Below, piece after piece: positions 38,141 to 62,824 of a stretch of 64,000 bases of DNA. Position numbers and translations under genes: made by a program. The notes below the pieces were generated by a model that worked only from the letters and a program-made list of their open reading frames with translations, made no database searches and was not told where the DNA came from. Source of the stretch: Vicinamibacterales bacterium (lineage in GTDB: Bacteria > Acidobacteriota > Vicinamibacteria > Vicinamibacterales > SCN-69-37); the NCBI GenBank assembly GCA_035550595.1, contig DASZOV010000004.1, positions 43,259 to 107,258 of the forward strand, in the 5' to 3' direction. The stretch's first letter is position 1. The number at the start of each line of letters is the position of its first letter.

Positions 38141-38163
38141 GCCGCTCAGTCGCGCGTCGACCG

Positions 38164-38478: not shown

Positions 38479-38569
38479 GGTCGTGACCTCGTGAATATGG
38501 ACGACTACGTCATCGCGCACCTCCTGTCAGCGTGCGGACGGCCCAGCGCCGCCATCTGTGGCATGTAAA

Positions 38570-38590
38570 GACGACGATGTCATCGTCGTC
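38570..38590 (-). terminator. Weak hairpin downstream of doc
   Basis: GACGACGATG-T-CATCGTCGTC is a perfect 10-bp stem, but only TTT follows it on the minus strand. Confidence 0.35.
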
Positions 38591-38620
38591 GCGAAAAAGT
38601 CAAACGGCTAGTCGATGCCG

Positions 38621-39231: not shown

Positions 39232-39322
39232 ATCGACAATGTACAGCGGCTGAATGCCGAGGACAAGCGATCGAGGCGAAGCTCGTGCGCGGCCTTTGCG
39301 GTCAGCCATTACGCGCGTCCCC

Positions 39323-40095: not shown

Positions 40096-40133
40096 GGGCG
40101 AAGCCTCGCGCGAAGTCGCGAAGACGCGAAGGG
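40096..40133 (+). repeat. CGCGAAG-octamer array
   Basis: GGGCGAAGCCTCGCGCGAAGTCGCGAAGACGCGAAGGG. Confidence 0.8.
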
Positions 40134-40170
40134 TAGGGATAGAGACAGAGGCCATCGCGCGCCAAGTAAT

Positions 40171-40264
40171 AAATGACGCCGCGAGCCCCCGAGCGCAGCG
40201 AGGGCGGCTAAGCGTGTGAGGCGCGGGATGGGGCCCGCGCCACTGCAAAGAAGATGACTGGCCC
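40171..40264 (+). repeat. REP-like ~90-nt element, copy C
   Basis: AAATGACGCCGCGAGCCCCCGAGCGCAGCGAGGGCGGCTAAGCGTGTGAGGCGCGGGATGGGGCCCGCGCCACTGCAAAGAAGATGACTGGCCCT. The 3' end is identical to copy D. Confidence 0.85.
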
Positions 40265-43430: not shown

Positions 43431-43532
43431 CAACTTCGAACTTCGAACTGAGGTTCCGGGCGTCGCCATCCGGCCGCCACGTCCGCACCGGGAACCAATT
43501 TCGAACTTCGAAGTTCATAGTTCGAAGTTGAC
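43431..43532. repeat. TTCGAA-arm hairpin element (second full member)
   Basis: CAACTTCGAACTTCGAACTGAGGTTCCGGG...CCGGGAACCAATTTCGAACTTCGAAGTTCATAGTTCGAAGTTG. Same arm/inner-stem architecture as 18866-18972. Confidence 0.8.
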
Positions 43533-45882: not shown

Positions 45883-46110
45883 TCAACTTCGAACTTCGAA
45901 CTATGAACTTCGAACTTGTTCCGGGTTCGGCCTCGCGCGAAGACGCGAAGGCTCGAATGATGGTGGAAGGACTTACATGCTGGTGGGGAGAACCTGGAAC
46001 CTGAGCACCGGGAACCGGGGAACCTTTCGAACCTGGAACCGCAGAACCCGGAACCCAGCCCAGAACCAGGAACCAGAACCAGGAACGCTGAACCCTGGAA
46101 CCCGGAACCC
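45883..46110. repeat. Composite intergenic mosaic: TTCGAA-heptad arm + CGCGAAG block + ~17 x GAACC array
   Basis: 45883-45925 is GTCAACTTCGAACTTCGAACTATGAACTTCGAACTTGTTCCGGG. 45929-45951 is GGCCTCGCGCGAAGACGCGAAGG, identical to 53651-53673. 45988-46110 is GAACC every 6-9 nt. Confidence 0.85.
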
Positions 46111-48193: not shown

Positions 48194-50830
48194 CTATCGT
48201 AACGCGCCACGCAGTATAGACGCGGCATCGACGCGTGAAGCGCGCCAGGCTGGGACGAGACTCGCTGCCGACGCCATGGCGGCGAGTAGCAGCGCAGCCA
48301 AGGCAAAGCTCGGCGGATCGAACGGGCCGACGCCCACGAGCGTGCCACGGGCGAGCCAGGTGAGCGCCGGCGCCACGACGAGGCCGGCCACGATCCCGAC
48401 GGCGGCCAGCCGCACACCGCGGTCGACGACGGTCATGACGATGCGTCGCCGGTCGGCGCCGAGCGCGATGCGCACGCCCATCTCCTGCGTTTGCAGCGAG
48501 ACCGCGTAGGAGACGAGACCGTAGACGCCGCACGCGGCGAGCAGGAGTGCCGCGATGCCGATGGCACCGAAGACGCGGCCGAACAGCGCGAACTGCCAGA
48601 ACGCGCGCGCTTCGATCGCGGGCATCGTCTGGACGTCGGCGATAGGTAGTTGCGAGTCCGATTCGCCGATCGCCGTGCGGGCGAGCGGGGCGGCCGACGC
48701 GGGATCGCCGGCGACACGTAGCACGAGCGCCGTATCGGGCGCCGCCTGCCAAGCGTAGGGCACGAAAGCGGTCGGCTCAGCGTGTGGCTCGCCAGGCTCG
48801 GTACCGAAGTCCGCGGCAACGCCCACGACGGTGAACGTCTGGTCGCCGGTCGATGCCGTCCATGCGCGGAAGCGACGGCCAATGGGATCGCGCCCTGGCC
48901 ATGCGTGCGCGGCAAGGCCTTCGTTGACGATGGCAATGTTCGCGCGCGACAGGCTCTCAGCCGGCGTCAGCACGCGGCCGCGAACGAGATGCACGCCGAG
49001 CGTGTCGAAGAGCGTCGACGTCGCACCGACGAGACGCATCGACTCGCGCGCGTCGGGATCGGCGGCGCGACCCTCCACGTCGAGATGGCCGCGTTCACCG
49101 CCGCCCGCGAGCGGCACGTACGTGGACACGGCTGCCGACTCGACGCCGGGCAACGTCGTTGCGCGACGCAGGATGTCGTCCATGCGCCGAACGCGAGCAT
49201 CCGTATCGGCGTAGCGATCGCCGGTCATCGCCACGCGCAGCATGAGCACGTGCGCGGCGTCCACGCCCCAGTCGTGTGCCGCCAGCGCGTCGAAGGTGCG
49301 CGAGAAGAGCACGGCGAGGACAATCGCCACGAGCGATACCGCCACCTGCGCGGCGACGAGCGTCGATCGCAGGACGGATCGACCCGTGCCGGTCGATCGG
49401 TCCGTCAGCCGCGCCGAGAGCCGTCCACGCGCGGCGCCGATCGCGGGTGCGAGTCCGGCGGCCACCGTGGCCGCGATGGCCATAGCGCTGGCGTACAGGA
49501 GCGCGCGGCCATCCATCTCCCAGTGCACGTACGCCGGGACCGCGCCGGCCGGCATCATGCGTGCGAGTTGCCACGTGCCGAGAGTCGCCATCGCGGCCGC
49601 GAGAGGAATGGCGGCGACGCCGAGCAGCAGACTTTCGGCGAGCAGGTGACGCACGATCTGGACGCGCGACGCGCCGAGTGCCGCGCGGACGGCGAGCTCG
49701 TGCGAGCGCGCCGTCGCACGCGCGAGCAGCAGGTTGGCGACGTTCGAGCACGCGATGAACAGCACGAGCGTCGCGCCGGCGAACATCAGCCACAGGACGG
49801 CGGGAATGGGATCCGGCACGAACGCCTCGTGCAGCGTGCGCACGCTCGCGCGCGTGAGGCCGGCATTGGTGGCGGGATACGCGCGGGCGAGATCGGCGGC
49901 GACGGCGTCGAGCGTCTGCGTGGCGCGCGTTCGCGTGACGGCCGACGCGAGCCGGGCGATCGTCGTCAAGGTTCGTACGCCACGCTCGTCGAGGCCACGG
50001 CCGATGCCGAGTGGCGTCCACAGCGCCTGCTGATTGGGAAACGCGAAGCCCGCCGGCATGACGCCGATGACGACGTGCGGGCGTCCGTCGACGAGCACGC
50101 TGCGTCCGACGACGGCCGGATCGGCGCCGTATCGTCGCGTCCACAAATCGTGGCCGAGAACGGCGACATCTGGCGCACCGGGGACACCATCGCTCGTCAT
50201 GAACGTGCGGCCCGCAATCGGCGCGGCGCCGATGAGCGCGAACAGACCTGGCGAAACGGCTGCCGCCGACACCGAAACGGGATCGCCGATGCCGGACAGC
50301 GCCACCTGCCGCGGCGCAGCGGCTTCAATCGTCGCGGTCTCGCCCGTCCGCGCGCGCCAGTCCTCGAAATCCGGATAGGACAGCGGCGTCGGTTGGCTGC
50401 TGGACGCGGCATCGCTGGTCACGCCGATGACGACGAGACGATCGGCATCGGGATAGGGATACGGCTGGAGCAACACGCCGTCGACGACGGCGAACATCGT
50501 CGTGTCGAGGCCGATGCCGAAGCCGAGGCAGAGCACGGCGAGGCAGGTGAGGACGCGGGCGCGCCACAGCGAGCGTCCGGCCTGACGCAGGTCGCGCATC
50601 AGGCCGCTGAACCACGACAGACGCCGCGCGTCGCGGCAGCCTTCGACGGCCGCGTCCACGCTGCCAAAGGCCGCGCGCGCGAGGCGCGCCGCGTCGGCGG
50701 ACGGCACGCCGCGGCTGAGGAGCAGCTCGGTGTGGCGATCGACGTGGAACTTCAGTTCGCGAGCCACGTCGGGGTCGGCCGGCGAACGGCGGCTGACGAA
50801 TCGCCAAGCGGCGCGCAGGACATTCAGCAT
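48194..50830 (-). CDS. ADOP-type duplicated FtsX/MacB-like permease (copy 3)
   Basis: 878 aa. N-terminus ...AAFGSVDAAVEGCRDARRLSWFSGLMRDLRQAGRSLWRA is typical of ADOP. Two FtsX modules, ending ...AWRASRVDAASILRGALR. Confidence 0.85.
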   Translation of the reverse strand: MLNVLRAAWRFVSRRSPADPDVARELKFHVDRHTELLLSRGVPSADAARLARAAFGSVDAAVEGCRDARRLSWFSGLMRDLRQAGRSLWRARVLTCLAVLCLGFGIGLDTTMFAVVDGVLLQPYPYPDADRLVVIGVTSDAASSSQPTPLSYPDFEDWRARTGETATIEAAAPRQVALSGIGDPVSVSAAAVSPGLFALIGAAPIAGRTFMTSDGVPGAPDVAVLGHDLWTRRYGADPAVVGRSVLVDGRPHVVIGVMPAGFAFPNQQALWTPLGIGRGLDERGVRTLTTIARLASAVTRTRATQTLDAVAADLARAYPATNAGLTRASVRTLHEAFVPDPIPAVLWLMFAGATLVLFIACSNVANLLLARATARSHELAVRAALGASRVQIVRHLLAESLLLGVAAIPLAAAMATLGTWQLARMMPAGAVPAYVHWEMDGRALLYASAMAIAATVAAGLAPAIGAARGRLSARLTDRSTGTGRSVLRSTLVAAQVAVSLVAIVLAVLFSRTFDALAAHDWGVDAAHVLMLRVAMTGDRYADTDARVRRMDDILRRATTLPGVESAAVSTYVPLAGGGERGHLDVEGRAADPDARESMRLVGATSTLFDTLGVHLVRGRVLTPAESLSRANIAIVNEGLAAHAWPGRDPIGRRFRAWTASTGDQTFTVVGVAADFGTEPGEPHAEPTAFVPYAWQAAPDTALVLRVAGDPASAAPLARTAIGESDSQLPIADVQTMPAIEARAFWQFALFGRVFGAIGIAALLLAACGVYGLVSYAVSLQTQEMGVRIALGADRRRIVMTVVDRGVRLAAVGIVAGLVVAPALTWLARGTLVGVGPFDPPSFALAALLLAAMASAASLVPAWRASRVDAASILRGALR

Positions 50831-50834
50831 GACG

Positions 50835-51170
50835 TCACGACTCCGTCTCGCGCAGCACCTGGTTGACGGCCGTCGTCAGCCGCTGCCAGTCCTCGACCTC
50901 GCGGTCGAGCTGCTTGCGGCCCGAGCGGCTCAGCTCGTAGAAGCGTGCCTGGCGGTTGTGGTCCGACACGCCCCAGGTGCTCGTGATCCAGCCGCGGCGC
51001 TCCAAGCGGTGGAGCGCCGGATAGAGCGAGCCCTGCGGGACCTGGAGCACGGCGCTCGAGAGCTGTTCGAGACGCTGCGAGATGGCCCAGCCATGCTGCG
51101 GGCCAAGGCGCAGGGCGCGGAGGATGAGGAGATCCAGGGTGCCCTGCGGCAGATCGAGAGGTTTGGGCAT
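50835..51170 (-). CDS. PadR-family transcriptional regulator
   Basis: LPQGTLDLLILRALRLGPQHGWAISQRL...GSLYPALHRLERRGWI...RFYELSRSGRKQL. Confidence 0.9.
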   Translation of the reverse strand: MPKPLDLPQGTLDLLILRALRLGPQHGWAISQRLEQLSSAVLQVPQGSLYPALHRLERRGWITSTWGVSDHNRQARFYELSRSGRKQLDREVEDWQRLTTAVNQVLRETES

Positions 51171-51178
51171 GGGGTTGT

Positions 51179-51224
51179 CTTGCGCTTCTACAAGAGCGTA
51201 TCGGTACTGTTGTAGAAGCGCAAG
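51179..51224. promoter_or_regulatory. Perfect 15-bp inverted repeat (candidate PadR operator) abutting padR copy 3
   Basis: CTTGCGCTTCTACAA (51179-93), 16-nt spacer, TTGTAGAAGCGCAAG (51210-24). The left arm starts 9 nt from the padR ATG. Confidence 0.45.
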
Positions 51225-51341
51225 AGGATCGGACGGCCGGGAATCGCGCTAAACTTGATCGGATGTCCACGTGCCGGCGCGCCGGGCTGAGGGCCAGGGC
51301 GCGAGGCGGCGCGGGGCGCCACTCCACGGAGGGGCACGGGA

Positions 51342-51608
51342 ATGGGCGATGCGGGTGAAGGGCTGATTGACGCGGAATCTCGGATTCAGGAACGGATGGA
51401 GGAGCTCGAGACGGAGCGGAAGGCGCGGCGCAGCAAGGACGTGCGCGATCCCGGACCGCTCGGCGAGCTCGAGTCGCTCAAGCTGGCGCGCATCGAGCTC
51501 GAGCGCCAGTTCGCCGCGACGTCGCACGAACGGCGCAAGGCCGTCCTGACCGACGCGATCCGCGAGGTCGACCGCCGGCTGGCGGAAATGAGCGTCGCGC
51601 TCTCGTAG
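51342..51608 (+). CDS. Small charged coiled-coil hypothetical protein
   Basis: 88-aa ORF with GC3-rich codons and GGAGGGG upstream. The sequence is Glu/Arg/Leu heptad-like. No family recognised. Confidence 0.4.
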   Translation: MGDAGEGLIDAESRIQERMEELETERKARRSKDVRDPGPLGELESLKLARIELERQFAATSHERRKAVLTDAIREVDRRLAEMSVALS

Positions 51609-51609
51609 A

Positions 51610-51770
51610 CGCGCGAAGCCGCGGACGCGAAGGACGGACGACGCTTCGCGCGAAGGCTCGGACGGGCCTCACGCGAAGGGGGGACATTTCACGCGAAGGC
51701 GCGAAGATCGCGAAGGGATCCGACTAGTTCTTTCTTTTCACGTTCGCGGCTTCGCGCGTGAGGCTTACGC
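51610..51770. repeat. CGCGAAG-octamer composite (7 forward and 2 inverted copies), imperfect long palindrome
   Basis: Contains GCGCGAAGCC, GACGCGAAGG, the palindrome CTTCGCGCGAAG, CCTCACGCGAAGG, and the 28-mer TCACGCGAAGGCGCGAAGATCGCGAAGG (51688-51715), then the inverted GGCTTCGCGCGTGAGG. Confidence 0.85.
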
Positions 51771-51792
51771 GTCGTCTTTGTTGTTGGGCCGG

Positions 51793-52311
51793 TCAAGAAA
51801 ATGCTTTCTGGATCGTGCGCATCGCCAAGAAGAGTTTGCGCGGCTGGTCCGTCAAAGGGATGAACTTGTAGCTCTCGTAGAAGGCGCGCGCTGCGTCGTT
51901 CATCGCTTCCGCGACGACGCCGACCGAAGCGACGACTTCGGTGCTCTTCCAACTTCTGAGCAACGCGTCCATCAGCAAGAGCTTTCCGAGTCTTCGACCG
52001 TGATGCGCTCGGTCGACCGCGAGCCGACCAAGTAGAGTCGCCGGGATCAGCGGATATTTCGGGAGGCGACGCGCGACATCCTGGGGCAACTCGCCGAGCC
52101 GCACTGTATACGCCGAGAGTGTGTAGTACCCAACGATGATCCCATTCGTGTCGACCAGTACGAACGGCGCTGCGACCTTGCGCTTGGCGTCTTGGCGGGC
52201 TTGAACGTGGAGGTAGTGGTCAAGTTCCGGAACGCCGCACGAGAATGCGAGCCGGTCGTGGTCCCCGAGCGGCTCGATCAAGTACGGCGCAGCCGCGTCG
52301 ACGTCGTTCAC
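51793..52311 (-). CDS. GNAT-family toxin (TacT/KacT-like acetyltransferase)
   Basis: 172 aa. LAFSCGVPELDHYLHVQARQDAKRKVAAPFVLV...TLLGRLAVDRAHHGRRLGKLLLMDAL is the typical DUF1778-partnered GNAT. ATGA overlap with the antitoxin. Confidence 0.8.
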   Translation of the reverse strand: MNDVDAAAPYLIEPLGDHDRLAFSCGVPELDHYLHVQARQDAKRKVAAPFVLVDTNGIIVGYYTLSAYTVRLGELPQDVARRLPKYPLIPATLLGRLAVDRAHHGRRLGKLLLMDALLRSWKSTEVVASVGVVAEAMNDAARAFYESYKFIPLTDQPRKLFLAMRTIQKAFS

Positions 52312-52631
52312 GCCGTTCGGGCGCGGCGACCCATGCGCGTCTTGTAGTCGCGCGCCGCAGCACGCAGGGCTGTGCTCGGCGTGGCGGGATTGAGCACGGC
52401 AGCGACAAAGACTTTCGTGTCGCGTGCGCTCAGAGTCATCATTGCGCGTTCTTGAATGGTCCGTTCCGCTGCGACCTTGGCGCTGTGCAAGACGAAGTCG
52501 ACCATGGTGCGGCCTTCGAGATCGGCGGCGCGCTGGATGAGGCGCTTCTGATCTTCATCCATCGGGGCGTCGATACGATAAACCTTCGGCATCACGTGCC
52601 GTCGTTTCCGCGTCTTGGCCGTGGGGGGCAT
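52308..52631 (-). CDS. DUF1778 (TacA-like, RHH) antitoxin
   Basis: RIDAPMDEDQKRLIQRAADLEGRTMVDFVLHSAKVAAERTIQE... Start is either 52631 or MPKVYRI at 52592. Confidence 0.8.
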   Translation of the reverse strand: MPPTAKTRKRRHVMPKVYRIDAPMDEDQKRLIQRAADLEGRTMVDFVLHSAKVAAERTIQERAMMTLSARDTKVFVAAVLNPATPSTALRAAARDYKTRMGRRARTA

Positions 52632-52679
52632 CGTGTCCTCTCAATCAACAGCGTACGGTGACTTGCCATACCGGTCAAC

Positions 52680-52825
52680 CTCACGCGAAGACGCGAACAA
52701 TGCGAAGGACAGGCACCTCACGCGAAGGCGCGAAGATCGAGAAGGAGAGCGGATCGTAGGCCGCGCCTTCGCGGCTTCGCGTGAGGCCTCGTGAGCGGGC
52801 ATTTTGTCGTCTTCGCGCGAGGCTC
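52680..52825. repeat. CGCGAAG-octamer composite, same organisation and orientation as 51610-51770
   Basis: CCTCACGCGAAGACGCGAACAATGCGAAGG...TCACGCGAAGGCGCGAAGATCGAGAAGG (52718-52745)...GCCTTCGCGGCTTCGCGTGAGGCC...CGTCTTCGCGCGAGGC. Confidence 0.85.
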
Positions 52826-53203
52826 TCAGCTCGCCTTTTGTGAGCGTGTGAGCGGCAGGACCAGTTCCACGCGATCGGCCGTCACCGTGGGAGCCAGCCG
52901 GCCACGCTCGCCGCGGTCGAGGCGAACCAGACCGTAGCGTTCCATCGTCCGCAGCGTGCGCGACAGGTTCGACTTGGCCTTGCCGGTCAGGCGGGCCAAC
53001 TCATCCAGCGAGCCCGGCCTCTTCTCCGCCATGACACGCAGCAACTCACGGTTGCCGGCCGAGAGGACCTTCGCGAAGGACTCGGTCGACGTGAACCAGA
53101 CCTTCGGCTCGGTGGGCGACACGCGATGTTCGCCACGTGCGACGGCGAGAGTGCGTGCCTTCATGTCCTCGTAGCTCGCGATGCCGACCTTCAGCGTCGT
53201 CAT
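52826..53203 (-). CDS. HTH transcriptional regulator, putative antitoxin partner of the DUF6516 protein
   Basis: In ORF 52826..53602, start MTTLKVGIASYEDMKARTLAVARGEHRVSPTEPKVWFTSTESFAKVLSAGNRELLRVM...SNLSRTLRTMERYGLVRL. ATGA overlap with the upstream gene. Confidence 0.7.
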   Translation of the reverse strand: MTTLKVGIASYEDMKARTLAVARGEHRVSPTEPKVWFTSTESFAKVLSAGNRELLRVMAEKRPGSLDELARLTGKAKSNLSRTLRTMERYGLVRLDRGERGRLAPTVTADRVELVLPLTRSQKAS

Positions 53204-53556
53204 GGGATTACTCCTCTTTCGCGCAACACGGCGTCTACGACTGTCCAGAAGTCGGCGAGGAGCGTCACCGCGTCCTGGTAATCGTAGGGGCGAATCGTCC
53301 GGAGCCGGTGCTGGTGGTCCTGCGGCCCGCCCTGCGCCTGCCGCGCCATCGGATGCGCGTTGTCGAATCCAACCAGTCGCTCGCCGTTCGGCCCGTGCAG
53401 CGTGAATGAATAGTCGAGGCCGTGCGGTTTCCCGGCTGACGCAGGAACCCGCGTCACGACGAATCGAACCCAGTAGTTCTGCTCGGGATCGACCACGAGA
53501 ACCTGGCCGTCGAGGTCGAGAAGGACGTCGAGGCTCCGGTCGTGCGACTCCGGCAC
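53200..53556 (-). CDS. DUF6516 / TumE-like putative toxin
   Basis: 118 aa. YSFTLHGPNGERLVGFDNAHP...DHQHRLRTIRPYDYQDAVTLLADFWTVV matches the remembered DUF6516 pattern (Y-x-Y...DN-x-H...H-x-H...Y-x-F...DF). GTG start preceded by an AT-rich promoter-like stretch. Confidence 0.65.
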   Translation of the reverse strand: MPESHDRSLDVLLDLDGQVLVVDPEQNYWVRFVVTRVPASAGKPHGLDYSFTLHGPNGERLVGFDNAHPMARQAQGGPQDHQHRLRTIRPYDYQDAVTLLADFWTVVDAVLRERGVIP

Positions 53557-53604
53557 AATAGATAGTTATCACACTGAAGCAACTTAAGCAAAACAAAGCC
53601 ATAG

Positions 53605-53683
53605 CGCGAGGCCCGAGTGGAGCGAGGGTGCCGAAGCGTCGTAGGCGTGGGGCCTCGCGCGAAGACGCGAAGGTCGCGAAGAC
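53605..53683 (+). repeat. Degenerate REP-like copy E fused to a CGCGAAG block
   Basis: GCGCGAGGCCCGAGTGGAGCGAGGGTGCCGAAGCGTCGTAGGCGTGGGGCC, then CTCGCGCGAAGACGCGAAGGTCGCGAAGAC. Confidence 0.7.
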
Positions 53684-53755
53684 AGAAGCCTACCGTGTCG
53701 TAGGGCTGGCGGCCGCGTTCACATCGGCTGCAAAAAAGCGGACACAAAAAAAAGA

Positions 53756-53793
53756 GCGGGTGGGCCGTGGCCCACCCGCTCTTCGTGTGTGAA
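53756..53793 (-). terminator. Rho-independent terminator of TonB-dependent receptor copy 1
   Basis: On the minus strand AAGAGCGGGTGGGCC-loop-GGCCCACCCGCTCTT (15-bp stem) is followed by a run of 8 T. It starts 12 nt after the stop codon. Confidence 0.9.
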
Positions 53794-53804
53794 GTGGCTG
53801 ACGC

Positions 53805-56800
53805 TTAGAACGAGAGGCGGAAGGTCAACTGGACCGTCCGCATGTCCTGCGCGCTGTTGACCGCGCCAAACCCGGCATTCTTCGGCTGGGTCTTGTTCGG
53901 ATCGACGCTGCCGTCAGCCAGGAACTGGGAGTTGCGAATGCCTTGGTCGACCGGGTTCGTCAACTGGAGCTGCGTCTGCCGGCCGGTGTAGACGAGGATG
54001 TTGAACGCGTTGAACGCGTCCACGCGGAACGAGGCCTGCCGGCCGCCGCCGAGGCGGAAGTTCCGGACGAGCGCCAGGTCGATCCTTTTGTTCGGGCAGC
54101 CCTGGAGGATGTTACGGCCCGACTCTAGGCCGTTGCTGCTGTAGGTCGGTCCCGCGACAACACTGGCGTTGAACTGCGCGTACTGGTTGTCCGAGCAGCC
54201 ACTGCCAGGATCGCCGTTGTAAACGATCCGGGCGGCGTAGTCGGGCGAACCCGTCAGATTCACGTTCTGGCCGTTGTTCTGGTACGTATAGCTCAGATCG
54301 TAATGTCCAGCCGAGCCAGCTAACAACACGCCCGACAACTGCCAGTCGTTGAGGATGGCCGCGACGACGCGCTTGCCGCCGCTGTCCGCGCTGACGTCGG
54401 GCAGGTCCCACACCGCGTTGGCTGTGAGCGTGTGTCGGCGCAGGTCGAGGTTCTTCATCAGGTCGAACCACTGCGCGTTGTCGGCACGCAGGGACACCGT
54501 GCCGTCGGGCGAGTGCTGGAGCCGCTCGACGTCCATGTTGTTGATGTTCGGTAAGCCGGTATTGCCGGTGAAGGACAGCCCGAGCGTGTAGTTGAGGCCG
54601 AACGAGAGCCCGTTCACGAACCGGCGGTTGAGCGACGCCTGGATCGAGTGGTACGACTGGTAGAACGCGCTCGTGTTCTGCCCGATGTTGTTCAGGCCCC
54701 GGTAGGTCCGGAGCATGACGTCGGGGAGCGCCGTGGCGCCCGGCACCGAGCTCGGGGCTTTGGTCGGATCTTGATTCTCGGGCAGGTAGGCCGCGCCGAG
54801 ATCGACGGAGTTCAGGTTCAGGCGACCGTTGCCCTGGAAGTCGCCCATCATGTTGTAGCCGTGGCTACCAACGTAGGACAGGTCGAGCGAGGAGCTCCAC
54901 GGCAACACCATCTGCACACCTGCGTTCCACTGCACCGATGACGGAATGTCCGAATCGTACTGGAACGTGATCATGTCGGGCGTGCCAATCGTGCTCACGC
55001 TGCTCGCCAGGTTCTGCAGGTTGCCATTGCGTAGATCCTGGCCGTCGGCGAACGGCGGGTTGCTCGGGATCGAGAACACCGTGTTGCCGTCCGGCCGGTC
55101 GTAGAACAGACCGAGGCCGCCACGCACGACGAAGCGCTGGTCGCCGCTGAGGTCATAGGCGGCGCCGAAGCGCGGACCGAAGACCATCGACGGCCAGGTG
55201 TAGCCCGTCTTCGCGATGCCGTCGCCGGCCGCGCGAATGCCGTTCAGCCGGTCGCCCGAGTCAGGCACGACTGTGCCGATGAAGGCCGAGCTGTTGGCCG
55301 CGTTCGGGATGACGAGGAGCTCCCCGGTGAGCGGGTTCATTGCGTTGCGATCGCCTGCGGCGCAGGGACTGACGCCGCCCGCGCACGCTGGGACGTAGAG
55401 CACCGGCGCCGCTCCGGCCGACCACTGATCGGGGAAGAAGCCGGACATCTGGCCGAACTGGTCGTACTGCGGCTCCTGGTGCGTGAAGCGCATGCCGTAG
55501 TCGAGGGTCAACCGCGGGCTCACCTTCCAGTTGTCCTGGAGGTAGAACTCCTCGTTGTTGTAGATCATGTTGCCCTCGATGAGCTGCGACGCCTGCTGGT
55601 AGCGCGTGAACACGCCCACGGCCGCGTTGGCGAACCCAAAGCCCGTATCGAGCGGGTTGTTGCTGTCGTTGCCGAAGTCGACGTTGCCCTGGAACGAGCC
55701 CGCGCCGCCGGCGCCGGTGTTCTGGGCCTTGAAGCTGTGGTTGTTGTAGAAGCCAGCCTTCATCGTGTGATGGCCCGCGACCTTGGTCACGCTCATCACG
55801 AGGTCCTGCGTCTTGTTCACGTTCAGCCAGCCCGGGTACTGCTGGTTGATGTTCTGATTGTTGGAGATGAGACCGCCCCAGTTGAACAGCGGCGGCAGGT
55901 TGACGCTGGTGCCGTCGAAGTAGATGGCGCCGGTGCGCGTGAGCGCGTCGAGCTGGTAGTAGCGCGGATCGACCTTGCCCGCATTCGGGTAGAGCAGCGG
56001 GAAGTCGGCCAGGCCGTTCAGCCGGTTGGCGCTGTCGTTGATCAGAATGCCGTTGTTGTTGCCGCCGGCCAGCTCGTTCTTGATCGTGCCATAGGTGGCC
56101 TCGATGAACGTCGTCGGGTTCAGCGTGTAGTCGACCGTGAAGCTATAGTTCGTGATGTACGGATACGGTACGAGCACATCGTTGTAACCCGGCAACGTGC
56201 CCACCACGACGCGCTGCTGATCACGATTCGCCGAGTAATGGCCGGTGACGCGGAGGGCCGGCGAGAACTGGTAGTCCACGCGCACGGCCGGCTGCTGGAC
56301 GAGGTGCTTGTCTTCGGCTCGCTGCAACTCCGTGTTGTAGCTCGAGCCCGGCGCCTGCGTCAGGTTCGGCAATGGATACCGGTTCAGGACGTTCAGGCCC
56401 ACCTGGTACAGGTCGGACTGCGGGATGACGTTGTTCGGGTACGGCTCCCGCGTGTACGGGCTCAGCAGTTGCGGGATCGGATCGCCGTTGTTGTCGAGCG
56501 ACTGCGAGAAGTCGCCCTGCCGCTCGGCCGCGCTCGGCAGCCGAAAGTGGAGGGTCGAACCCGCCGTCGCCTGCGGATGATATTCGTGGCTGTAGAAGAA
56601 GAACAGCTTGTTGTTGCCACCCGGCTTGCCGATCGGGCCGCCGATCGAGTAGCCCCAGTGCCGATCCTTGAACTCCGGCTTTGGGTTACCGTTCTCTTTG
56701 TCCTGCCACTTGATTGTGTCCCACGAGTCGTTGCGCTCGATGTCGTAGAGGGAGCCGTGGAAGCGGTTCGTGCCGCTTTTGCTCACGGCCGTGATCTGCA

Positions 56801-57503
56801 CGCCGCTCGACCGCCCGTATTCGGCCTGGTAGCCCTGCGTGAGCACCTTGACCTCGGCGATCGACTCGATGTTGAGGTTCAGCATCTGGCCGTTGTTGCC
56901 GGTGTCCATGGCCGAGATGCCGTCCATCTGGAGATTGTTCTGGCCGCTCGCGCCCAATCGCGTGGCCTGTTGGCCGCTCTGCATTTGCGTCTGAATATTC
57001 ATGCCGGGCGCCATGAGTGCGAGGTTCGCAAAGTTGTCGTGACCGACCGGCAGGTTCGTGACCTGCGTGGTCGAGACCGTGAAGGAGCGCTCGCCGCTCT
57101 GGGCCTGAATCATCGGCGCTTCGGCGGTGACGTCGACGGTTTCCGTCGTGCCGCCGACTTCGAGGGTCAGTGTGCCGACGACGACACGGTCGCCGCCGCT
57201 CACGGCGACGTCCTTACGCTGCGTGGTCTTGAAGCCGCTCATCGACACGTCAACGGTGTACGTGTCGGCGGTGACGTTCGCAATGACCCAGTCACCGGTC
57301 TCGTTGGTGACGACCGGGATCGACTTCGTCCCGCGTGACTGACTGGTGAGCACCACGGTGGCGCCTGGAATGACGCCGCCCTGCGTGTCTTTGACCGTTC
57401 CGGCCACCGTGCCGGTCGTGATCTGCGCCGAAGCGTTCGACACGGCGACGCACCCGAGGATCAGTGCTGCCGCCAGTGCCCAGACCTTCCCTTTCCACTG
57501 CAT
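53805..57503 (-). CDS. TonB-dependent receptor with N-terminal carboxypeptidase-regulatory-like domain (copy 1)
   Basis: ORF 53805..57560 trimmed to [27 protein letters not shown] (GGAGG RBS). [25 protein letters not shown] is the CarboxypepD_reg domain. A plug region and a long beta-barrel follow, ending FRLSF. Confidence 0.9.
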   Translation of the reverse strand: MQWKGKVWALAAALILGCVAVSNASAQITTGTVAGTVKDTQGGVIPGATVVLTSQSRGTKSIPVVTNETGDWVIANVTADTYTVDVSMSGFKTTQRKDVAVSGGDRVVVGTLTLEVGGTTETVDVTAEAPMIQAQSGERSFTVSTTQVTNLPVGHDNFANLALMAPGMNIQTQMQSGQQATRLGASGQNNLQMDGISAMDTGNNGQMLNLNIESIAEVKVLTQGYQAEYGRSSGVQITAVSKSGTNRFHGSLYDIERNDSWDTIKWQDKENGNPKPEFKDRHWGYSIGGPIGKPGGNNKLFFFYSHEYHPQATAGSTLHFRLPSAAERQGDFSQSLDNNGDPIPQLLSPYTREPYPNNVIPQSDLYQVGLNVLNRYPLPNLTQAPGSSYNTELQRAEDKHLVQQPAVRVDYQFSPALRVTGHYSANRDQQRVVVGTLPGYNDVLVPYPYITNYSFTVDYTLNPTTFIEATYGTIKNELAGGNNNGILINDSANRLNGLADFPLLYPNAGKVDPRYYQLDALTRTGAIYFDGTSVNLPPLFNWGGLISNNQNINQQYPGWLNVNKTQDLVMSVTKVAGHHTMKAGFYNNHSFKAQNTGAGGAGSFQGNVDFGNDSNNPLDTGFGFANAAVGVFTRYQQASQLIEGNMIYNNEEFYLQDNWKVSPRLTLDYGMRFTHQEPQYDQFGQMSGFFPDQWSAGAAPVLYVPACAGGVSPCAAGDRNAMNPLTGELLVIPNAANSSAFIGTVVPDSGDRLNGIRAAGDGIAKTGYTWPSMVFGPRFGAAYDLSGDQRFVVRGGLGLFYDRPDGNTVFSIPSNPPFADGQDLRNGNLQNLASSVSTIGTPDMITFQYDSDIPSSVQWNAGVQMVLPWSSSLDLSYVGSHGYNMMGDFQGNGRLNLNSVDLGAAYLPENQDPTKAPSSVPGATALPDVMLRTYRGLNNIGQNTSAFYQSYHSIQASLNRRFVNGLSFGLNYTLGLSFTGNTGLPNINNMDVERLQHSPDGTVSLRADNAQWFDLMKNLDLRRHTLTANAVWDLPDVSADSGGKRVVAAILNDWQLSGVLLAGSAGHYDLSYTYQNNGQNVNLTGSPDYAARIVYNGDPGSGCSDNQYAQFNASVVAGPTYSSNGLESGRNILQGCPNKRIDLALVRNFRLGGGRQASFRVDAFNAFNILVYTGRQTQLQLTNPVDQGIRNSQFLADGSVDPNKTQPKNAGFGAVNSAQDMRTVQLTFRLSF

Positions 57504-57837
57504 GTTCTGGCCTCCATCCCCTGACACACGACGAACAGGACCCCGTCGGAACCCGGCCACGCCCGGCCGGACGCCTGTCGTTCGGTGATCTGACAGGCGC
57601 TCCAGTCGTTCGCGGTTGCGACGGCCGCAGCCGCCGCCCCGGACACGACGCCATCCTGCCTAGCTATCCCGGACACAGTAGCGGGCGGTCGAAGGCGTGC
57701 CCATCCGGCGCCAACCGTATTTCTCAGGACTGAAGAGGCTCGTATTGCTCGCGCCGGAATGGGTGGGGGGACCGCTCGCGGGCCCGATTTCCGGCCGGAC
57801 CCTCCCGTCTTGTCCTGACGGGAGCGCAAAAAAAGAG

Positions 57838-57875
57838 CGGGTGGGCCAGAGGCCCACCCGCTCTTCGTGTGTGAA
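57838..57875 (-). terminator. Rho-independent terminator of TonB-dependent receptor copy 2
   Basis: Same 15-bp stem as 53762-53793 with a different loop (AGA), followed by a run of 7 T on the minus strand. Confidence 0.9.
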
Positions 57876-57886
57876 GCGATCCGCGC

Positions 57887-60800
57887 TTAGAACGAGAGGC
57901 GGAAGGTCAACTGGACCGTCCGCATGTCCTGCGCGCTCGTCGCGCCACCGAACCCGGCGCTCTTCGGCTGGGCCTTGGTCGGATCGACGCTGCCGTCGGC
58001 CAGGAACTGCGAGTTGCGGACGCCCTGGTCCGTCGGGTTGGTCAACTGGAGCTGCGCCTGCCGGTTGTTGTAGACGAGCACGTTGAACGCGTTGAACGCG
58101 TCCACGCGGACCTGCGCCTGCCGGCCGCCGCCGAGGCGGAAGTTCCGGACGAGCGCCAGGTCGACCGTCTTGTTCGGGCAGCCCTGGAGGATGTTGCGAC
58201 CCGACTCCATGCCGTCGCTGTGGTAGGTCGGACCCGCCACGACGCCGGCGTTGAACTGCGCGTACTGGTTGCTCGAGCAGCCGCTGCCAGGATCGCCGTT
58301 GTAAAGGAGCCGGGCGGCGTAGTCGGGCGACCCCGTCAGATTCACGTTCGAACCGTTGTTCTGGTACGTGTAGCTCAGGTCGTAATGTCCACCCGAGCCA
58401 GCCGACAACACGCCCGACAACTGCCAGTCGTTGAGGATGGCCGCGACGACGCGCTTGCCGCCGCTGTCGGCGCTCATGTCCGGCAGGTCCCACACGGCAT
58501 TCGCGATGAGCGTGTGCCGCCGCAGGTCGAGGTCCTTCATCAGGTCGAACCACTGCGCGTTGTCGGCGCGCAGCGAGACCGTGCCGTCCGGCGAGTGCTG
58601 AAGCCGCTCGACGTCCATGTTGCTGATGTTCGGGAGGCCGGTATTGCCCGTGAAGGAGAGCCCGAGCGTGTAGTTGAGCCCGAACTGGAGTCCGTTCACG
58701 AACCGGCGGTTGAGCGAGGCCTGGATCGAGTGATACGTCTGGTAGAACCCGCTCGTGTTCTGCCCGATGTTGTTCAGGCCCTGGTAGGTCCGGAGCATGA
58801 CGTCGGGGAGCGCCGTGGCGCCCGGCACCGAGCTCGGGGCCTTGGTCGGATCCTGGTTCTCGGGCAGGTACGCCGCGCCGAGATCGACGGAGTTCAGGTT
58901 CAGGCGCCCGTTGCCCTGGAAGTCGCCCATCATGTTGTAGCCGTGGCTACCGACATAGGACAGGTCGAGCGACGAGCTCCACGGCAACACCATCTGCACA
59001 CCCGCGTTCCACTGTACCGACGACGGGATGTCCGCGTCGTACTGGAACGTGATCAGGTCAGGCGTGCCAATCGTGCTCACACTGCCCGACAGGTTCTGCA
59101 GGTTGCCGTTGCGGAGGTCCTGCGAGTCGGCGAACGGCGGGTTGCTCGGGATCGAGAACACCGTGTTGCCGTCCGGCCGGTCGTAGAACAGACCGAGGCC
59201 GCCACGCACGACGAAGCGCTGGTCGCCGCTGAGGTCATAGGCGGCGCCGAAGCGCGGGCCGAAGACCATCGATGGCCACGTGTACCCCGTCTTCGCGATG
59301 CCGTCGCCGGCCGCGCGAATGCCGTCCAACCGGTCACCCGAGTTCGGGACGACCGTGCCGATGAACGCCGAGCTGTTCGTCGCGTTCGGGATGACGAGGA
59401 GCTCACCGGTGAGCGGGTTCATCGCGTTGCGCTGGTTGGCCGAGCAGGGATTCACGCCGCTCGCGCAGGCCGGCACGTAGAGCACCGGGGCCGTCGCCGC
59501 ATTCCATTGATCCGGGAAGAAGCCGGACATCTGGCCGAACTGGTCGTACTGCGGCTCCTGGTGCGTGAAGCGCATGCCGTAGTCGAGGGTCAACCGCGAA
59601 GTCATCTTCCAGTTGTCCTGGAGGTAGAACTCCGTGTTGTTGTAAATCATGTTGCCCTCGATGAGCTGCGACGACTGCTGGTAGCGGTCGAACACGCCCA
59701 CGGCTGCGTTGGCGAACCCGAAGCCCGTATCGATCGGGTTGTTGCTGTCGTTGTTGAAGCTGACGGTGCCCTGGAACGAGCCCGCGCCGCCGGCGCCGGT
59801 GTTCTGGGCCTTGAAGCTGTGGTTGTTGTAGAAGCCGGCCTTCATCGTGTGGTGACCCGCAACCTTGGTCACGCTCACCGCGAAGTCCTGCGTCTTGTTC
59901 ACGTTCAGCCAGCCCGGATACTGCAGGTTCAGCGTGCCGGGATTGGAAATCAGACCGCCCCAGTTGAAGAGCGGCGGCAGGTTGACGCTGGTACCGTCGA
60001 AGTAGATGGCGCCGGTGCGCGTGAGCGCGTCGAGCTGGTAGTAGCGCGGATCGACCTTGCCCGCGTTCGGATAGAGCAGCGGGAAGTCGGCCAGGCCGTT
60101 CAACCGGTTGGCGCTGTCGTTGACGAGGATGCCACCCGAGCCGCCGCCGGCCAGCTCGTTCTTGATCGAGCCGTAGACGGCCTCGATGAACGTCGTCGGC
60201 GTCAACGTGTAGTCCACCGTGAAGCCATAGTTCGTGATGTACGGATAGGGGATCAACACGTCGTTGTAGCCCGGCAGCGTGCCGACCTGGACGCGCTGCT
60301 GGTCACGCTGGGCGGAGTACTTGCCCGTGATGCGAAGGGCGGGCGAGAGCTGGTAGTCCACGCGGATGGCCGGCTGCTGCACGAGGTGCTTGTCCTCGGC
60401 GCGTTCGAGCTCCGTGTTGTAGCTCGTGCCGGGTGCCTGCGTGATGTTCGGCAGCGGGTACCGGTTCAGGACGTTCAGGCCCACCTGGTACAGGTCGGCC
60501 TGCGGGATGACGTTGTTCGGGTACGGTTCCCGCGTGGTCGGGCTGAGCAGTTGAGGAATCGGCGCGCCGTTGTTGTCGAGCGACTGCGAGAAGTCGCCCT
60601 GCCGCTCGAGCGCGGTCGGCAGGCGGAAACGGTTGATCGACCCAGCCGTCTTCTGCGGATGATATTCGTGGCTGTAGAAGAAGAACAGCTTGTTGTTCCC
60701 ACCCGGCTTGCCGATCGGGCCGCCAATGGAGTAACCCCAGCGCCGGTCCTTCAGCTCAGGCTTCTGGTTGCCATTGGCTTTGTCCTGCCACTTGATGGTG

Positions 60801-61564
60801 TCCCAATCGGAGTTGCGCTCGACGTCGTAGAGGGAGCCGTGGAAGCGGTTCGTGCCGCTCTTGGTCACGGCCGTGATCTGCGTGCCGCTCGACCGGCCGT
60901 ACTCGGCCTGGTAGCCCTGCGTGAGCACCTTGACCTCGGCGATCGACTCGATGTTCAACTGCAGCATCTGGCCGTTGTTGCCCGTGTCCATGGCCGAGAT
61001 GCCGTCCATCTGGAGATTGTTCTGGCCGCTCGAACCGAGCCGGTTCTGTGAACCCATGGCCATGCCGGGGGCCATGCGCGCGAGATCCGCGAAGTTGTTG
61101 CGGTTGATCGGCAGGTTCGCCACCTGCGTCGTGTCAACCGTGAAGGAGCGTTCACCGCTCTGGGCCTGAATCATCGGCGCTTCGGCGGTGACATCGACGG
61201 TTTCCGTCGTGCCGCCGACTTCCAGGGTCAGCGTGCCGACGACAACACGGTCGCCGCCGCTCACCGCCACGTCCTTGCGCGCCGTGGTCTTGAAGCCGCT
61301 CATCGACACTTCGACGGTGTACGTGTCGGCCGTGACGTTCGCGATGACCCAGTCACCGGTTTCGTTGGTGACGACCGGGATCGACTTCGTCCCGCGTGAC
61401 TGACTGGTGAGCACCACGGTGGCGCCTGGAATGACGCCGCCCTGCGTGTCTTTGACCGTCCCGGCCACCGTGCCGGTCGTGATCTGCGCCGAAGCGCTCG
61501 GCACCGCGAAGCACCCGAGGATCAGTGCTGTCGCTACTGCCCAAACCTTGCCTTTCCACTGCAT
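57887..61564 (-). CDS. TonB-dependent receptor with carboxypeptidase-regulatory-like domain (copy 2, tandem paralogue)
   Basis: ORF 57887..61606 trimmed to [27 protein letters not shown]. About 90% identical to copy 1 over the stretches compared by eye, with a 7-aa deletion near residue 190. Confidence 0.9.
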
Positions 61565-61950
61565 GTTTCTGGCCTCCATCCCCTGACACACGACGAACAG
61601 GACCACGTCAGGACCCGGCCGCGGGCACCAGACGCCTGTCGTTTTCGGTGCTCGACACGCGATCTGCCGCCCGCGGTCGCGGTGGCCGCAGCCACCGCCC
61701 CGGACACGACGTCATCCTGGCTAGCTATCCCGGGCACAGTAACGGGCAGGGGGAGATGTAGCCATACCTGAGAGTCAGTATTGTCATGTCAGAAAAGGAT
61801 GTATTTTCAGGTCTTCACAGGCCCCCTGTCGGCCAGGCCACGGCCCATGGCGCCTGCCATTTTTCGTCAAATTTCGAGCATTTTCGAGAAAACAAGCATG
61901 GACGGGACAGGAAACGGGCGCTGGGGAGGCGGCAGGGGACAGGGCCAAAG

Positions 61951-62045
61951 AAAAGATGGCACCGCGAGCCCCCGAGCGGAGCGAGGGCGGCGAAGCGCGT
62001 AGCGCGGGGGGGCCTGCGCCACTGCAAAGAAGATGACTGGCCCTG
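61951..62045 (+). repeat. REP-like ~90-nt element, copy D
   Basis: AAAAGATGGCACCGCGAGCCCCCGAGCGGAGCGAGGGCGGCGAAGCGCGTAGCGCGGGGGGGCCTGCGCCACTGCAAAGAAGATGACTGGCCCT. Confidence 0.85.
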
Positions 62046-62774: not shown

Positions 62775-62782
62775 ACGAGAAA

Positions 62783-62822
62783 GTTAGAAGTTCGAAGCCA
62801 GAAGCCAGAAGCCAGAAGTTCG
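62783..62822. repeat. GCCAGAA x3 flanked by AGTTCGAA palindromes in the kinase-regulator spacer
   Basis: AGAAGTTCGAAGCCAGAAGCCAGAAGCCAGAAGTTCGAACT fills the 50-nt gap between the HK stop (62825) and the RR start (62774). Confidence 0.8.
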
Positions 62823-62824
62823 AA

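Follow-up and report, generated by a model that had tools for sequence, protein, structure and literature searches.

Two toxin-antitoxin (TA) gene pairs that lie one behind the other between long palindromes built from the heptamer CGCGAAG raise the question of whether they form an integron-like cassette array or sit among dispersed repeats of a more general kind. An earlier note on this DNA had compared the layout to an integron or CALIN array and had named a REP/BIME-type repeat as the fallback. The locus is part of a stretch of 64,000 nt, here called the window, from a Vicinamibacterales bacterium (GCA_035550595.1, contig DASZOV010000004.1, positions 43,259-107,258, forward strand), and gene identities were taken from a Pfam profile search of about 40 ORFs covering it. 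The locus is probably a small TA islet of horizontal origin, in which recombination between interspersed hairpin repeats of the REP/BIME kind would shuffle the modules. The fallback and the proposed variation by module plus composite have held, while the integron reading has not.

The islet is located in the gap between two convergent chromosomal genes of this soil acidobacterium, an 88-aa gene on the plus strand and a TonB-dependent receptor gene on the minus strand. Three blocks of CGCGAAGN octamers, all in one orientation, bracket the TacT/TacA pair (51793-52631) and the TumE/TumA pair (52826-53556), which lie on the minus strand; two of the blocks are full nested hairpins. This is the arrangement described before, with coordinates shifted by 1 nt, and the coordinates and strands also bear out that both operons are co-oriented with a palindromic element at the 3' end of each. 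Only 3-10 nt separate stop codons from repeats, so that the modules are tightly delimited. The features discussed below are as follows:

51342-51608, plus strand: 88-aa gene, left anchor of the variable site (exact protein on at least 23 metagenome contigs)
51609-51790, no strand assigned: composite 1, seven forward CGCGAAG units, loop and inverted arm (repeat-unit core 51689-51782)
51680-53749, no strand assigned: variable segment, TA islet with internal composites (alignment jump in L226)
51793-52311, minus strand: predicted TacT-like GNAT acetyltransferase toxin, 172 aa (Pfam Acetyltransf_7 and Acetyltransf_1)
52308-52631, minus strand: TacA-like (DUF1778) antitoxin, 107 aa (Pfam TacA1, E = 9.5e-22)
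52653-52671, minus strand: operator-like palindrome GTATGG-N7-CCGTAC just upstream of tacA (read in the sequence, flagged as stem-loop)
52677-52824, no strand assigned: composite 2, nested double hairpin of octamer arrays (stem search and folding)
52826-53206, minus strand: TumA-like winged-helix antitoxin, 126 aa (Pfam HVO_A0114, E = 1e-19)
53200-53556, minus strand: predicted TumE (DUF6516) toxin, 118 aa (Pfam TumE, E = 2e-8, 34.8 bits against a cut-off of 23.4)
53604-53660, no strand assigned: REP-like hairpin, copy of a second dispersed repeat (fold), preceding three forward octamers
53651-53683, plus strand: half composite, three forward octamers without inverted arm (octamer count and stem search)
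53751-53784, minus strand: intrinsic terminator of the TonB-dependent receptor gene, right anchor (15-bp stem and T tract)
53805-57560, minus strand: TonB-dependent receptor gene, right anchor (Pfam OMP_b-brl_4 and CarboxypepD_reg)
24277-24304, minus strand: third 28-mer copy, in an octamer array next to two tandem REP-like copies, no TA gene nearby
40109-40131, plus strand: three octamers in a solo array, with a REP-like copy behind it
45936-45950, plus strand: double octamer between convergent housekeeping genes, among heptamer arrays (conserved in L005)

All four genes of the GNAT/DUF1778 and HTH/DUF6516 pairs noticed earlier were confirmed by Pfam. As judged from gene content and order, the first pair is predicted to be of the TacAT type, the DUF1778/TacA gene lying directly upstream of the GNAT toxin gene and overlapping it by 4 nt. 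The second would be of the TumE-TumA type, combining a DUF6516/TumE gene with a small DNA-binding partner; the tumE gene and the HVO_A0114 winged-helix partner gene overlap by 7 nt, and this pairing is also found in plasmid annotations. In domain content and bicistronic overlap the two pairs thus match the type II systems TacAT and TumE-TumA. The TumE family has been validated as a toxin (PMC10584680). DUF6516 was found predominantly downstream of its partner in that study (PMC10584680), whereas here tumE is upstream. A motif GTACGG-N7-(C/A)CGTAC, similarly placed upstream of tacA, is also present in the two closest TacAT relatives, L134 and L135. We found neither a sigma-70 consensus promoter nor a tRNA or tmRNA as integration target. 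The 88-aa protein matched no Pfam family, and its homologues carry Vicinamibacterales names.

The TA genes look foreign to this chromosome, since they have a lower GC3 (0.76 for tacT against 0.85-0.90 in neighbouring genes), since homologues of TacT occur in other taxa and since TumEA resembles a plasmid pair. For TacT there are 6884 homologues, up to 83% identical and in unrelated contexts and taxa; those at 65-83% identity include proteins named cyanobacterial, Bryobacteraceae and Elusimicrobiota. At the DNA level, the coding region of TumEA shares 72.7% identity with a pair on an Enterobacter IncR plasmid, and the homology to plasmids ends at the ORF boundaries. Both modules were therefore presumably acquired horizontally. 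The composites are absent from L134 and L135 (83% and 74% amino acid identity) as well as from the plasmid-borne tumEA loci compared.

The heptamer CGCGAAG occurs 73 times in the window, compared with 35.9 +/- 6.2 in shuffled sequences, none of 100 shuffles reaching 73. Its six clusters are all intergenic (24278-24358, 40109-40131, 45936-45950, 51612-51756, 52684-52817 and 53658-53681). The 28-mer said to be common to both composites, with a third copy elsewhere, was confirmed at 51689-51716 and 52718-52745 on the plus strand and at 24277-24304 on the minus strand, where 0 copies are expected; the copy at 52718-52745 has one C-to-A change, permitted by the degenerate pattern. The octamer units have an 8-bp periodicity in direct and inverted arrays. 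Only 38% of the spacers are complementary between the arms, and the heptamer is kept regardless of spacer pairing. Composite 1 has an outer stem of 23 nt (51609-51631 with 51737-51759, 91% complementary) and folds at -47.3 and -44.2 kcal/mol on the two strands. In composite 2 the nested stems are 52679-52693 with 52808-52822 and 52716-52735 with 52767-52786 (95%), and folding gives -48.9 and -46.0 kcal/mol (z = -6.2 and -5.0). Compared with shuffled sequences, both composites are much more stably folded (z = -4.1 to -6.2). The half composite is 100% complementary over 53652-53667 to 52808-52823 in composite 2. Alignment shows composites 1 and 2, together with a third copy in related strains (C3'), to be homologous repeats of a single unit about 110-150 nt long, and composite 1 and C3' have an identical loop of 28 nt. 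This loop was found only at this locus, and loops differ between loci in the window. By eye, the REP-like hairpin at about 53604-53660 resembles copies at 24090-24231, about 40170-40255 and about 61955-62045, and octamer array and REP-like element form mosaics at 24090-24304, 40109-40255 and 53604-53683. As intrinsic terminators the composites were rejected, as they are without T tracts and only the terminator of the TonB-receptor gene scores well. Their hairpins may insulate or end transcription between the modules.

The comparison with integrons has points in its favour. As in integron and CALIN arrays, the cassettes are co-oriented and have an imperfect palindrome behind each of them, TA genes are a typical content, and the number of composites follows the number of modules across alleles, which differ by a cassette and one site. 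If so, the composites would be attC sites, folded as single strands and used by an IntI encoded elsewhere. However, no RYYYAAC...GTTRRRY pair 40-160 nt apart exists on either strand of 51500-53800, and none is therefore located in or around any composite; the earlier note had not convincingly identified such cores either. The single GTTGGGC reported before is present (51783-51789), and this sole plus-strand GTTRRRY has no partner; the only three R''/R' core pairs of the whole window are chance occurrences, all outside 51500-53800. Neither a Phage_integrase nor any other recombinase family was detected in the roughly 40 ORFs of the window, where no integrase had been seen before either, and a transposase is also absent from them. 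By folding energy, the two strands of each composite fold about equally, which gives no clear sign of the one-strand preference expected of attC. Moreover, the closest relatives of the cassettes are found without composites, a composite is present even at the empty site, and identical arrays occur one at a time next to housekeeping genes, both in the window and in numerous other genomes, so that here, unlike in integrons, the sites do not travel with cassettes and are common at non-cassette loci. We regard an integron-type array as extremely improbable.

Comparison with related strains provides insight into how the locus varies. In L226, a relative at 90% identity with the same flanking genes, about 80 nt of a single composite replace window 51680-53749, the alignment covering window 50402-51679 and then jumping to 53750-53821. 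Metagenome strains with flanks 96-99% identical form an allelic series in which every breakpoint is inside a composite: one composite at a site empty of modules, two where TacAT is the only module, three where a TumA stump accompanies TacAT, and unrelated DNA in place of TacAT. The suggestion that a TA pair and one flanking composite are present or absent as a unit thus applies to these relatives, and the empty site retains a single composite. The terminator of the TonB-receptor gene is conserved in all alleles. In most related strains tumA is a 54-codon 3' stump (window 52826-52989); the exact TumA protein was found on one short contig only, and a look-up of the exact TumE protein gave no record. 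The exact PadR protein, when looked up, led to the alleles already recovered with the 88-aa gene. Homologues farther removed from the 88-aa protein (67-68% identity) were discarded for the site comparison, since their different synteny (Lhr - gene - nuo) makes them uninformative on this site.

Relative to L005, a deletion of 305 bp in L014 lies between direct composite copies, each about 88 nt long and with an identical core of 33 nt in common. In L012, 1003 bp of L005 are replaced by 117 unrelated nt, and both junctions are at the ends of forward octamer arrays. Composite 2 is a breakpoint in alleles B and C. The filler of allele B (117-130 nt) has no Pfam match, no protein homologue and no DNA match elsewhere; simple recombination among the resident repeats would account for such a replacement by unrelated DNA only with a donor from outside. 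In allele A a full composite starts at the very point where tumA is cut, and in allele B the unrelated fragment is cut likewise. Transposition or an end-directed deletion could also produce the exact abutment of a truncated gene and the left end of a composite found in these two alleles. CCGGTCA / CCCGTCA is common to the tumA junction and the left edge of composite 2. As a target site CCGGTCA, seen at three junctions, was rejected: in two cases a stop codon or a -35-like TTGACC is part of it, and it is therefore kept as possible microhomology only.

From these data we suggest the following course of events. The islet would consist of one module of the TacAT type and one of the TumE-TumA type, each served by a promoter region of its own, set among repeats that would be resident in the host genome as part of a wider intergenic class and not borne by cassettes. 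That the repeats are resident is suggested by the composite retained in L226, by the closest TacAT loci, which are without composites, and by the homology of TumEA to plasmids, which stops at the ORF ends. At this locus the composites may serve as blocks of direct-repeat homology, and recombination or replication slippage between copies could delete, duplicate or exchange whole modules, so that strains would differ by one module and one composite. This recombination is presumably homology-driven, and the evidence points to exchange between repeats in preference to a dedicated site-specific system. The series of alleles is compatible with either gain or loss of modules.

Beyond the window, arrays of CGCGAAG octamers with a conserved TCA or AAC leader occur in many bacterial phyla, in methanogenic archaea and on viral contigs. 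An identical octamer array of 25 nt with the conserved leader is present on viral contigs and in genomes that span 45-70% GC and range from Acidobacteriota to Methanoculleus. Rfam gave 0 matches at gathering thresholds in the whole window and 0 for 18 array loci from other phyla, a permissive scan of the region yielding only sub-threshold noise, and a literature search by sequence found no paper containing the octamer or heptamer strings. Arrays in other genomes flank housekeeping genes, to which Pfam assigned most of 65 small ORFs beside them, and clustering of the genes beside 119 arrays revealed no recurrent family; a general link between arrays and TA genes was therefore dropped. Our data support the octamer repeat being a general, REP/BIME-like intergenic repeat of many phyla and not an integron site. 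It is extragenic and imperfectly palindromic, occurs at several unlinked intergenic sites and forms a mosaic with another motif. The fallback of the earlier note fits these observations, as the same arrays stand beside unrelated genes in the window, often adjoining the second REP-like element, and beside housekeeping genes elsewhere.

Three other readings have to be weighed against recombination between resident repeats. The composites might be non-autonomous mobile elements, MITE-like or IS200/IS605-like, inserted in and around the TA genes, with deletions between copies being secondary. The exact cuts at the composite start in alleles A and B would suit this, as would the loop, identical to that of composite 1, of the composite at the truncated-gene junction. 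In another soil population many CGCGAAG hairpins with conserved asymmetric flanks are found at different loci, and an IS200-like transposase N-terminus, judged by eye, adjoins an array in L160. But neither a target-site duplication nor a clean insertion-versus-empty pair for a single composite was seen, the window has no transposase, its loops differ between loci with that of composite 1 confined to this one, and the motif shared by the tumA junction and composite 2 equally fits a microhomology deletion. We consider insertion of mobile elements rather unlikely.

A second reading takes the hairpins as sites of an undescribed structure- or sequence-specific recombinase or nuclease, which would capture cassettes as integrons or XerCD/pdif do while being unrelated to both. 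Conservation of heptamer and leader across phyla, archaea and viral contigs, a heptamer kept where spacer pairing is not, and the tight spacing of the modules would agree with it, and PD-(D/E)XK GxxExxY genes are the commonest small neighbour of arrays (3 of 65). Yet most arrays flank ordinary genes and no cassette, no protein family recurs beside them, nothing dif-like was noticed on reading the region by eye, and the one resolvable deletion crosses over within 88 nt of homology, as expected of homologous recombination, which makes such an enzyme very unlikely. Finally, the arrays could control the TA operons, either as operators bound by proteins or as RNA elements, an example being arrays bound by a ribbon-helix-helix antitoxin. 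TacA is an antitoxin of this type, repeated operator arrays such as the 8-bp metboxes and the 7-bp omega heptads are known, the units here are short, periodic, direct and inverted, and composite 2 abuts the tacA promoter region. Arrays at loci without TA genes, an empty site that retains its composite, and the palindrome that tacA has of its own, in common with homologues lacking octamers, all speak against a regulatory role, for which we see only a slim chance.

The locus and its repeats have parallels in other systems. In enterobacteria REP/BIME elements are known substrates for duplication and deletion. Like them, the repeats described here are extragenic, form hairpins, are dispersed in many gaps, often just after stop codons, and make mosaics with a second motif, in this case the REP-like element of about 70 nt. 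Unlike them, they have stems of tandem 8-nt units with spacer positions often unpaired and no RAYT gene in the window, and whereas REP families are lineage-specific, the octamer unit is found across phyla. In Neisseria, the short repeats of NIME/dRS3, Correia elements and 'minimal mobile elements' flank strain-variable small gene modules at a fixed chromosomal site, and the modules are exchanged by homologous recombination after DNA uptake. The present locus shares this arrangement, with another repeat sequence and host; here, however, the number of modules follows that of the repeats, and an allele devoid of modules keeps one repeat. The pdif modules of Acinetobacter plasmids, TA and resistance modules flanked by XerC/XerD sites, likewise consist of separate units, in many cases TA pairs, with short recombination sites on either side, but our locus is chromosomal, its repeats are hairpins of more than 100 nt, and reading the region by eye revealed nothing like a dif site.

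Intergenic tandem units of 7-8 nt that are found in distant lineages are also known from the cyanobacterial STRR and TAACTGA repeats. Direct TAACTGA repeats are common to Beggiatoaceae, Cyanobacteria and Bacteroidetes, with no mechanism of spread or linked gene known (PMC4679880). They are direct for the most part and closely precede start codons (PMC4679880), whereas CGCGAAG arrays are commonly inverted pairs that form long hairpins and have a conserved 3-nt leader.

The locus gives a clear natural illustration of how interspersed repeats can render small accessory segments modular, with the repeats as seams: strains of one population differ by whole TA modules, apparently without integron machinery. 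For annotation this means that TA arrays with intervening palindromes should not be labelled CALIN on layout alone. An octamer array that spans phyla with its leader, and yet has no Rfam family and no paper found to contain its sequence, is the wider point of these results; if a single mechanism spreads or maintains it, that mechanism would be new and directly testable. The hairpin might even be an undescribed mobile or recombinogenic DNA module, with a protein partner of its own or as a portable homology of 25-28 identical nt common to different taxa, that lets small selfish modules such as TA pairs be captured, stacked and exchanged in intergenic DNA. This we hold to be unlikely; if true, homology or hairpins would here do what cassette capture does in integrons.

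Composites are present in all three intergenic gaps of the islet, compared with only about six gaps in the whole window, so that their link to the modules may exceed passive association.

The region between an 88-aa gene and the terminator of a TonB-receptor gene contains four minus-strand genes, whose Pfam matches place them in two families of type II toxin-antitoxin (TA) systems.

51342-51608, plus strand: 88-aa gene, left neighbour of the TA genes
51609-51790: composite 1
51793-52311, minus strand: GNAT toxin, partner of TacA (Pfam)
52308-52631, minus strand: TacA (Pfam, E = 1e-21)
52677-52824: composite 2
52826-53206, minus strand: HVO_A0114 winged-helix partner of TumE, TumA (Pfam)
53200-53556, minus strand: TumE/DUF6516 (Pfam)
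53651-53683: half composite
53751-53784, minus strand: TonB-receptor terminator, right neighbour of the TA genes
53805-57560, minus strand: TonB-receptor gene, 3' end facing the TA genes

Each of the three gaps around the TA pairs contains a block of CGCGAAGN octamers. CGCGAAG occurs 73 times in the window against 35.9 +/- 6.2 in shuffles, a twofold excess that comes mostly from six clusters, of which this locus has three, and a 28-mer pointed out in the earlier note is present in three copies where none is expected. Composites 1 and 2 each form a long nested hairpin, with folding far above shuffles on both strands (z = -4.1 to -6.2). In the third block, octamers in the forward direction only come after a REP-like hairpin. 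Alignment identifies the composites as homologous copies of one unit of ~110-150 nt. Hence, the layout proposed in the earlier note, TA pairs bracketed by CGCGAAG composites, is real. Because they are without T tracts, the composites are not canonical terminators; they might conceivably have an insulating role.

The window has a G+C content of 67% and a gene content typical of Acidobacteriota, with ADOP-type MacB/FtsX permeases and PadR regulators as well as CarboxypepD_reg TonB-dependent receptors, and the named homologues of the 88-aa gene are from Vicinamibacterales. The TA genes look acquired, judging from their lower GC3 (0.74-0.84 versus 0.85-0.90 in neighbouring genes), from TacT homologues in other named taxa and from close plasmid relatives of TumEA. 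Homologues of TacT number in the thousands and reach 83% identity; those few with a named source (65-73% identical) are labelled cyanobacterial, Bryobacteraceae or Elusimicrobiota. Over 675 nt, the coding DNA of tumE-tumA shares 72.7% identity with a pair carried by Enterobacter and Klebsiella plasmids, for example at 2945-3693 of the Enterobacter hormaechei IncR plasmid pKPC_CAV1176 (NZ_CP011661.1, locus L227), and the homology stops at the ORF boundaries. It has been shown experimentally that TumE-TumA is a translation-targeting TA family (PMC10584680). On clinical Enterobacteriaceae plasmids the pair has Trb conjugation genes on one side and a serine recombinase gene on the other.

Using JGI metagenome contigs recovered by exact-protein look-up of the 88-aa gene, we found an allelic series in which the flanks share 96-99% identity with the window or with one another.

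Alleles of the TA locus
W (window, Logan contigs L001-L003): TacAT and TumEA; two full composites and one half
A (contigs L005-L010, L013): TacAT and a 54-codon 3' tumA stump; three composites
B (contig L012): 1003 bp replaced by 117 unrelated nt
C (contig L014): tumA stump lost via a 305-bp deletion; two composites
E (contig L226): no TA genes; one composite

In allele A the tumA stump ends where the third full composite begins, and the 28-nt loop of this composite matches that of composite 1 exactly. Allele B, with flanks 99.4-99.7% identical to allele A, is missing the loop and right arm of composite 1, TacAT and the left part of composite 2, both junctions being at the ends of forward octamer arrays. 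The allele C deletion has its end points within two direct composite copies, each ~88 nt long, whose common core of 33 nt is identical. Allele E has 90% identical flanks and the same PadR-88aa synteny, with ~80 nt in place of window 51680-53749: a single composite, beyond which lie the same terminator and receptor gene. Across the alleles examined, every breakpoint is within composites, and composite number tracks module number, the empty site keeping one copy. The comparison among relatives suggested in the earlier note thus confirms a cassette-like presence and absence of modules.

The earlier note likened this layout to an integron or CALIN array, and this reading found no support. We searched both strands of 51500-53800 for an R'' (RYYYAAC) and R' (GTTRRRY) pair 40-160 nt apart and found none; the GTTGGGC at 51783 is without a partner core. 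Pfam identified no integrase, transposase or other recombinase among ~40 ORFs covering the window, which are housekeeping, regulatory or transport genes. The fold energies of the two strands are nearly equal for each composite, and Rfam gave no match to the composites. Moreover, CGCGAAG arrays are absent beside TacAT loci of other organisms whose TacT is 83% and 74% identical (aa); together with the confinement of the tumE-tumA plasmid homology to the ORFs, this indicates that the composites do not travel with the TA cassettes. A GTAYGG-N7-CCGTAC palindrome upstream of tacA is common to the window and the TacAT loci of other organisms and is therefore likely the operator of the TacAT module. 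The testable defining features of integron cassettes are absent here. The alternative in the same note, REP/BIME-type repeats, is supported by arrays beside unrelated genes: at 24277 beside a 3-keto-disaccharide hydrolase gene, at 40109 beside a DUF6498 gene and at 45936 between a DUF4159 gene and ychF.

We therefore regard the locus, with good though not full confidence, as a TA islet in which REP/BIME-like repeats are the sites of module shuffling, and recombination between the repeats is the most likely source of module presence and absence. Allele C would be a product of recombination or slippage between direct repeats, and allele E the remnant expected from such an event between the outermost copies. 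The simplest account of gain is recombination, inside shared arrays, with donor DNA in which a module lies between such arrays; allele B requires an outside donor of this kind or a more complex event. Transposition is a possible component, given that two genes are truncated exactly at the left end of a composite and that another soil population has a CGCGAAG hairpin family with conserved flanks at many loci. However, no target-site duplication, clean single-copy insertion or transposase was found, and 7-nt microhomology can equally account for the tumA junction. As a system, the locus is a variant of a known arrangement, with interspersed repeats as seams of a variable islet; it is noteworthy for its clean allelic series and the wide distribution of the octamer hairpin.

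The hairpin with conserved asymmetric flanks (TTTGAAATTCTTTGTCTCA ... TGAGCATTCTGAGAGCGAAACTCTCAGATCAT) occurs in many copies at different loci of one or more soil populations (L147, L150, L152, L161-L163, L166, L169, L170, L178, L182, L187, L191, L194, L198, L206, L210, L212, L215) and resembles a MITE or an IS200/605-type derivative.

The triple array CGCGAAG-N1-2-CGCGAAG-N1-2-CGCGAAG is not confined to one lineage. With one genome per species scanned, we found at least 119 stretches (loci L015-L133), where a rough estimate of chance gives a handful. The matches listed include isolates and comprise Myxococcales, Chloroflexota, Planctomycetota, Verrucomicrobiota, Sphingomonadales, Gemmatimonadota, Thermoanaerobaculia, Acidobacteriota and cyanobacteria as well as the archaea Methanoculleus and Methanothrix; a minority of them are coding repeats with a 9-nt period. 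Among matches listed, the three preceding bases are TCA in 55/144 and AAC in 28/144, and in about half of the arrays two or more inverted units lie within 450 nt. An exact 25-mer of the window composites is found on 81 metagenome contigs with G+C contents of 45-70% (loci L137-L216), and IMG/VR viral contigs also carry the array, with the same leader bias among the matches listed (L228-L347). In 96 distinct hairpins the heptamer is kept and spacer pairing is not, the 1-2-nt spacers being complementary from arm to arm at only 38% of positions. No gene family recurs among the neighbour genes compared, which are mostly housekeeping; the commonest small neighbours are PD-(D/E)XK GxxExxY (PDDEXK_3) genes (3/65 flanking small ORFs), which directly adjoin arrays at L165 ~3150-3574, L188 1469-1732, L190 78-527 and L193 2691-3188. 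In L165 two arrays, one forward and one inverted, lie ~515 nt apart, and a GxxExxY-like frame, recognized by eye only, begins just within one of them. No Rfam family matched the arrays, and no paper in the literature library searched by array sequence contains them; their wide distribution is apparently undescribed. The nearest published analogue found is the TAACTGA heptamer direct repeat common to Beggiatoaceae, Cyanobacteria and Bacteroidetes, whose mode of spread is also unknown (PMC4679880).

The window contains sister array types, AACTTCG, GGAACCN and CAGAAGC, and dispersed copies of a REP-like element of ~72 nt (GGGGCCCCACCCC...GCTACGCGCTTCGCC...CCTCGCTACGCTCG), which adjoins CGCGAAG arrays three times to give BIME-like mosaics.

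5742-5772, 18869-18969, 27302-27336, 43432-43530, 45885-45917: tandem AACTTCG heptamer arrays
45988-46110: GGAACCN heptamer array, about 12-17 units, intergenic
62781-62824: CAGAAGC/AAGTTAG heptamer array, intergenic
24090-24231 (two tandem), ~40170-40255, ~61955-62045, 53604-53660: REP-like element

At two sites forward AACTTCG arrays are followed by inverted CGAAGTT arrays, forming long hairpins, and at three sites a small GGCGCCTTCGGCGC hairpin follows; the array at 43436 has one 7-nt unit more in the window than in L005. A TGCATTCN octamer array is present in the gap that follows the 88-aa homologue in other Vicinamibacterales (L222 4307-4370, L224 1915-1985); it varies in copy number and is absent from the sister contigs L218 and L219, so that different octamer arrays appear and disappear at intergenic sites within the order.

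Right of the islet, two TonB-receptor genes are ~87% identical between strains (window 53716-61747 versus L005 11780-17865), and the left flank of the same strains is 96-98% identical; this sharp change in divergence may be a recombination boundary or reflect receptors that are diversifying in this region. A third small module of two genes (~62% GC), a DUF6036 nucleotidyltransferase gene (30550-31080) and a 104-aa ORF (31061-31375), both on the minus strand, is wedged between ADOP permease and aldose epimerase genes, with no octamer composites beside it. Finally, the stretch 37514-39323 has a lower G+C content (61-64%) and, by eye, a probable acetyltransferase-like ORF; its ORFs 38164-38526 and 38612-39253 have no Pfam match, and it may be another acquired patch.
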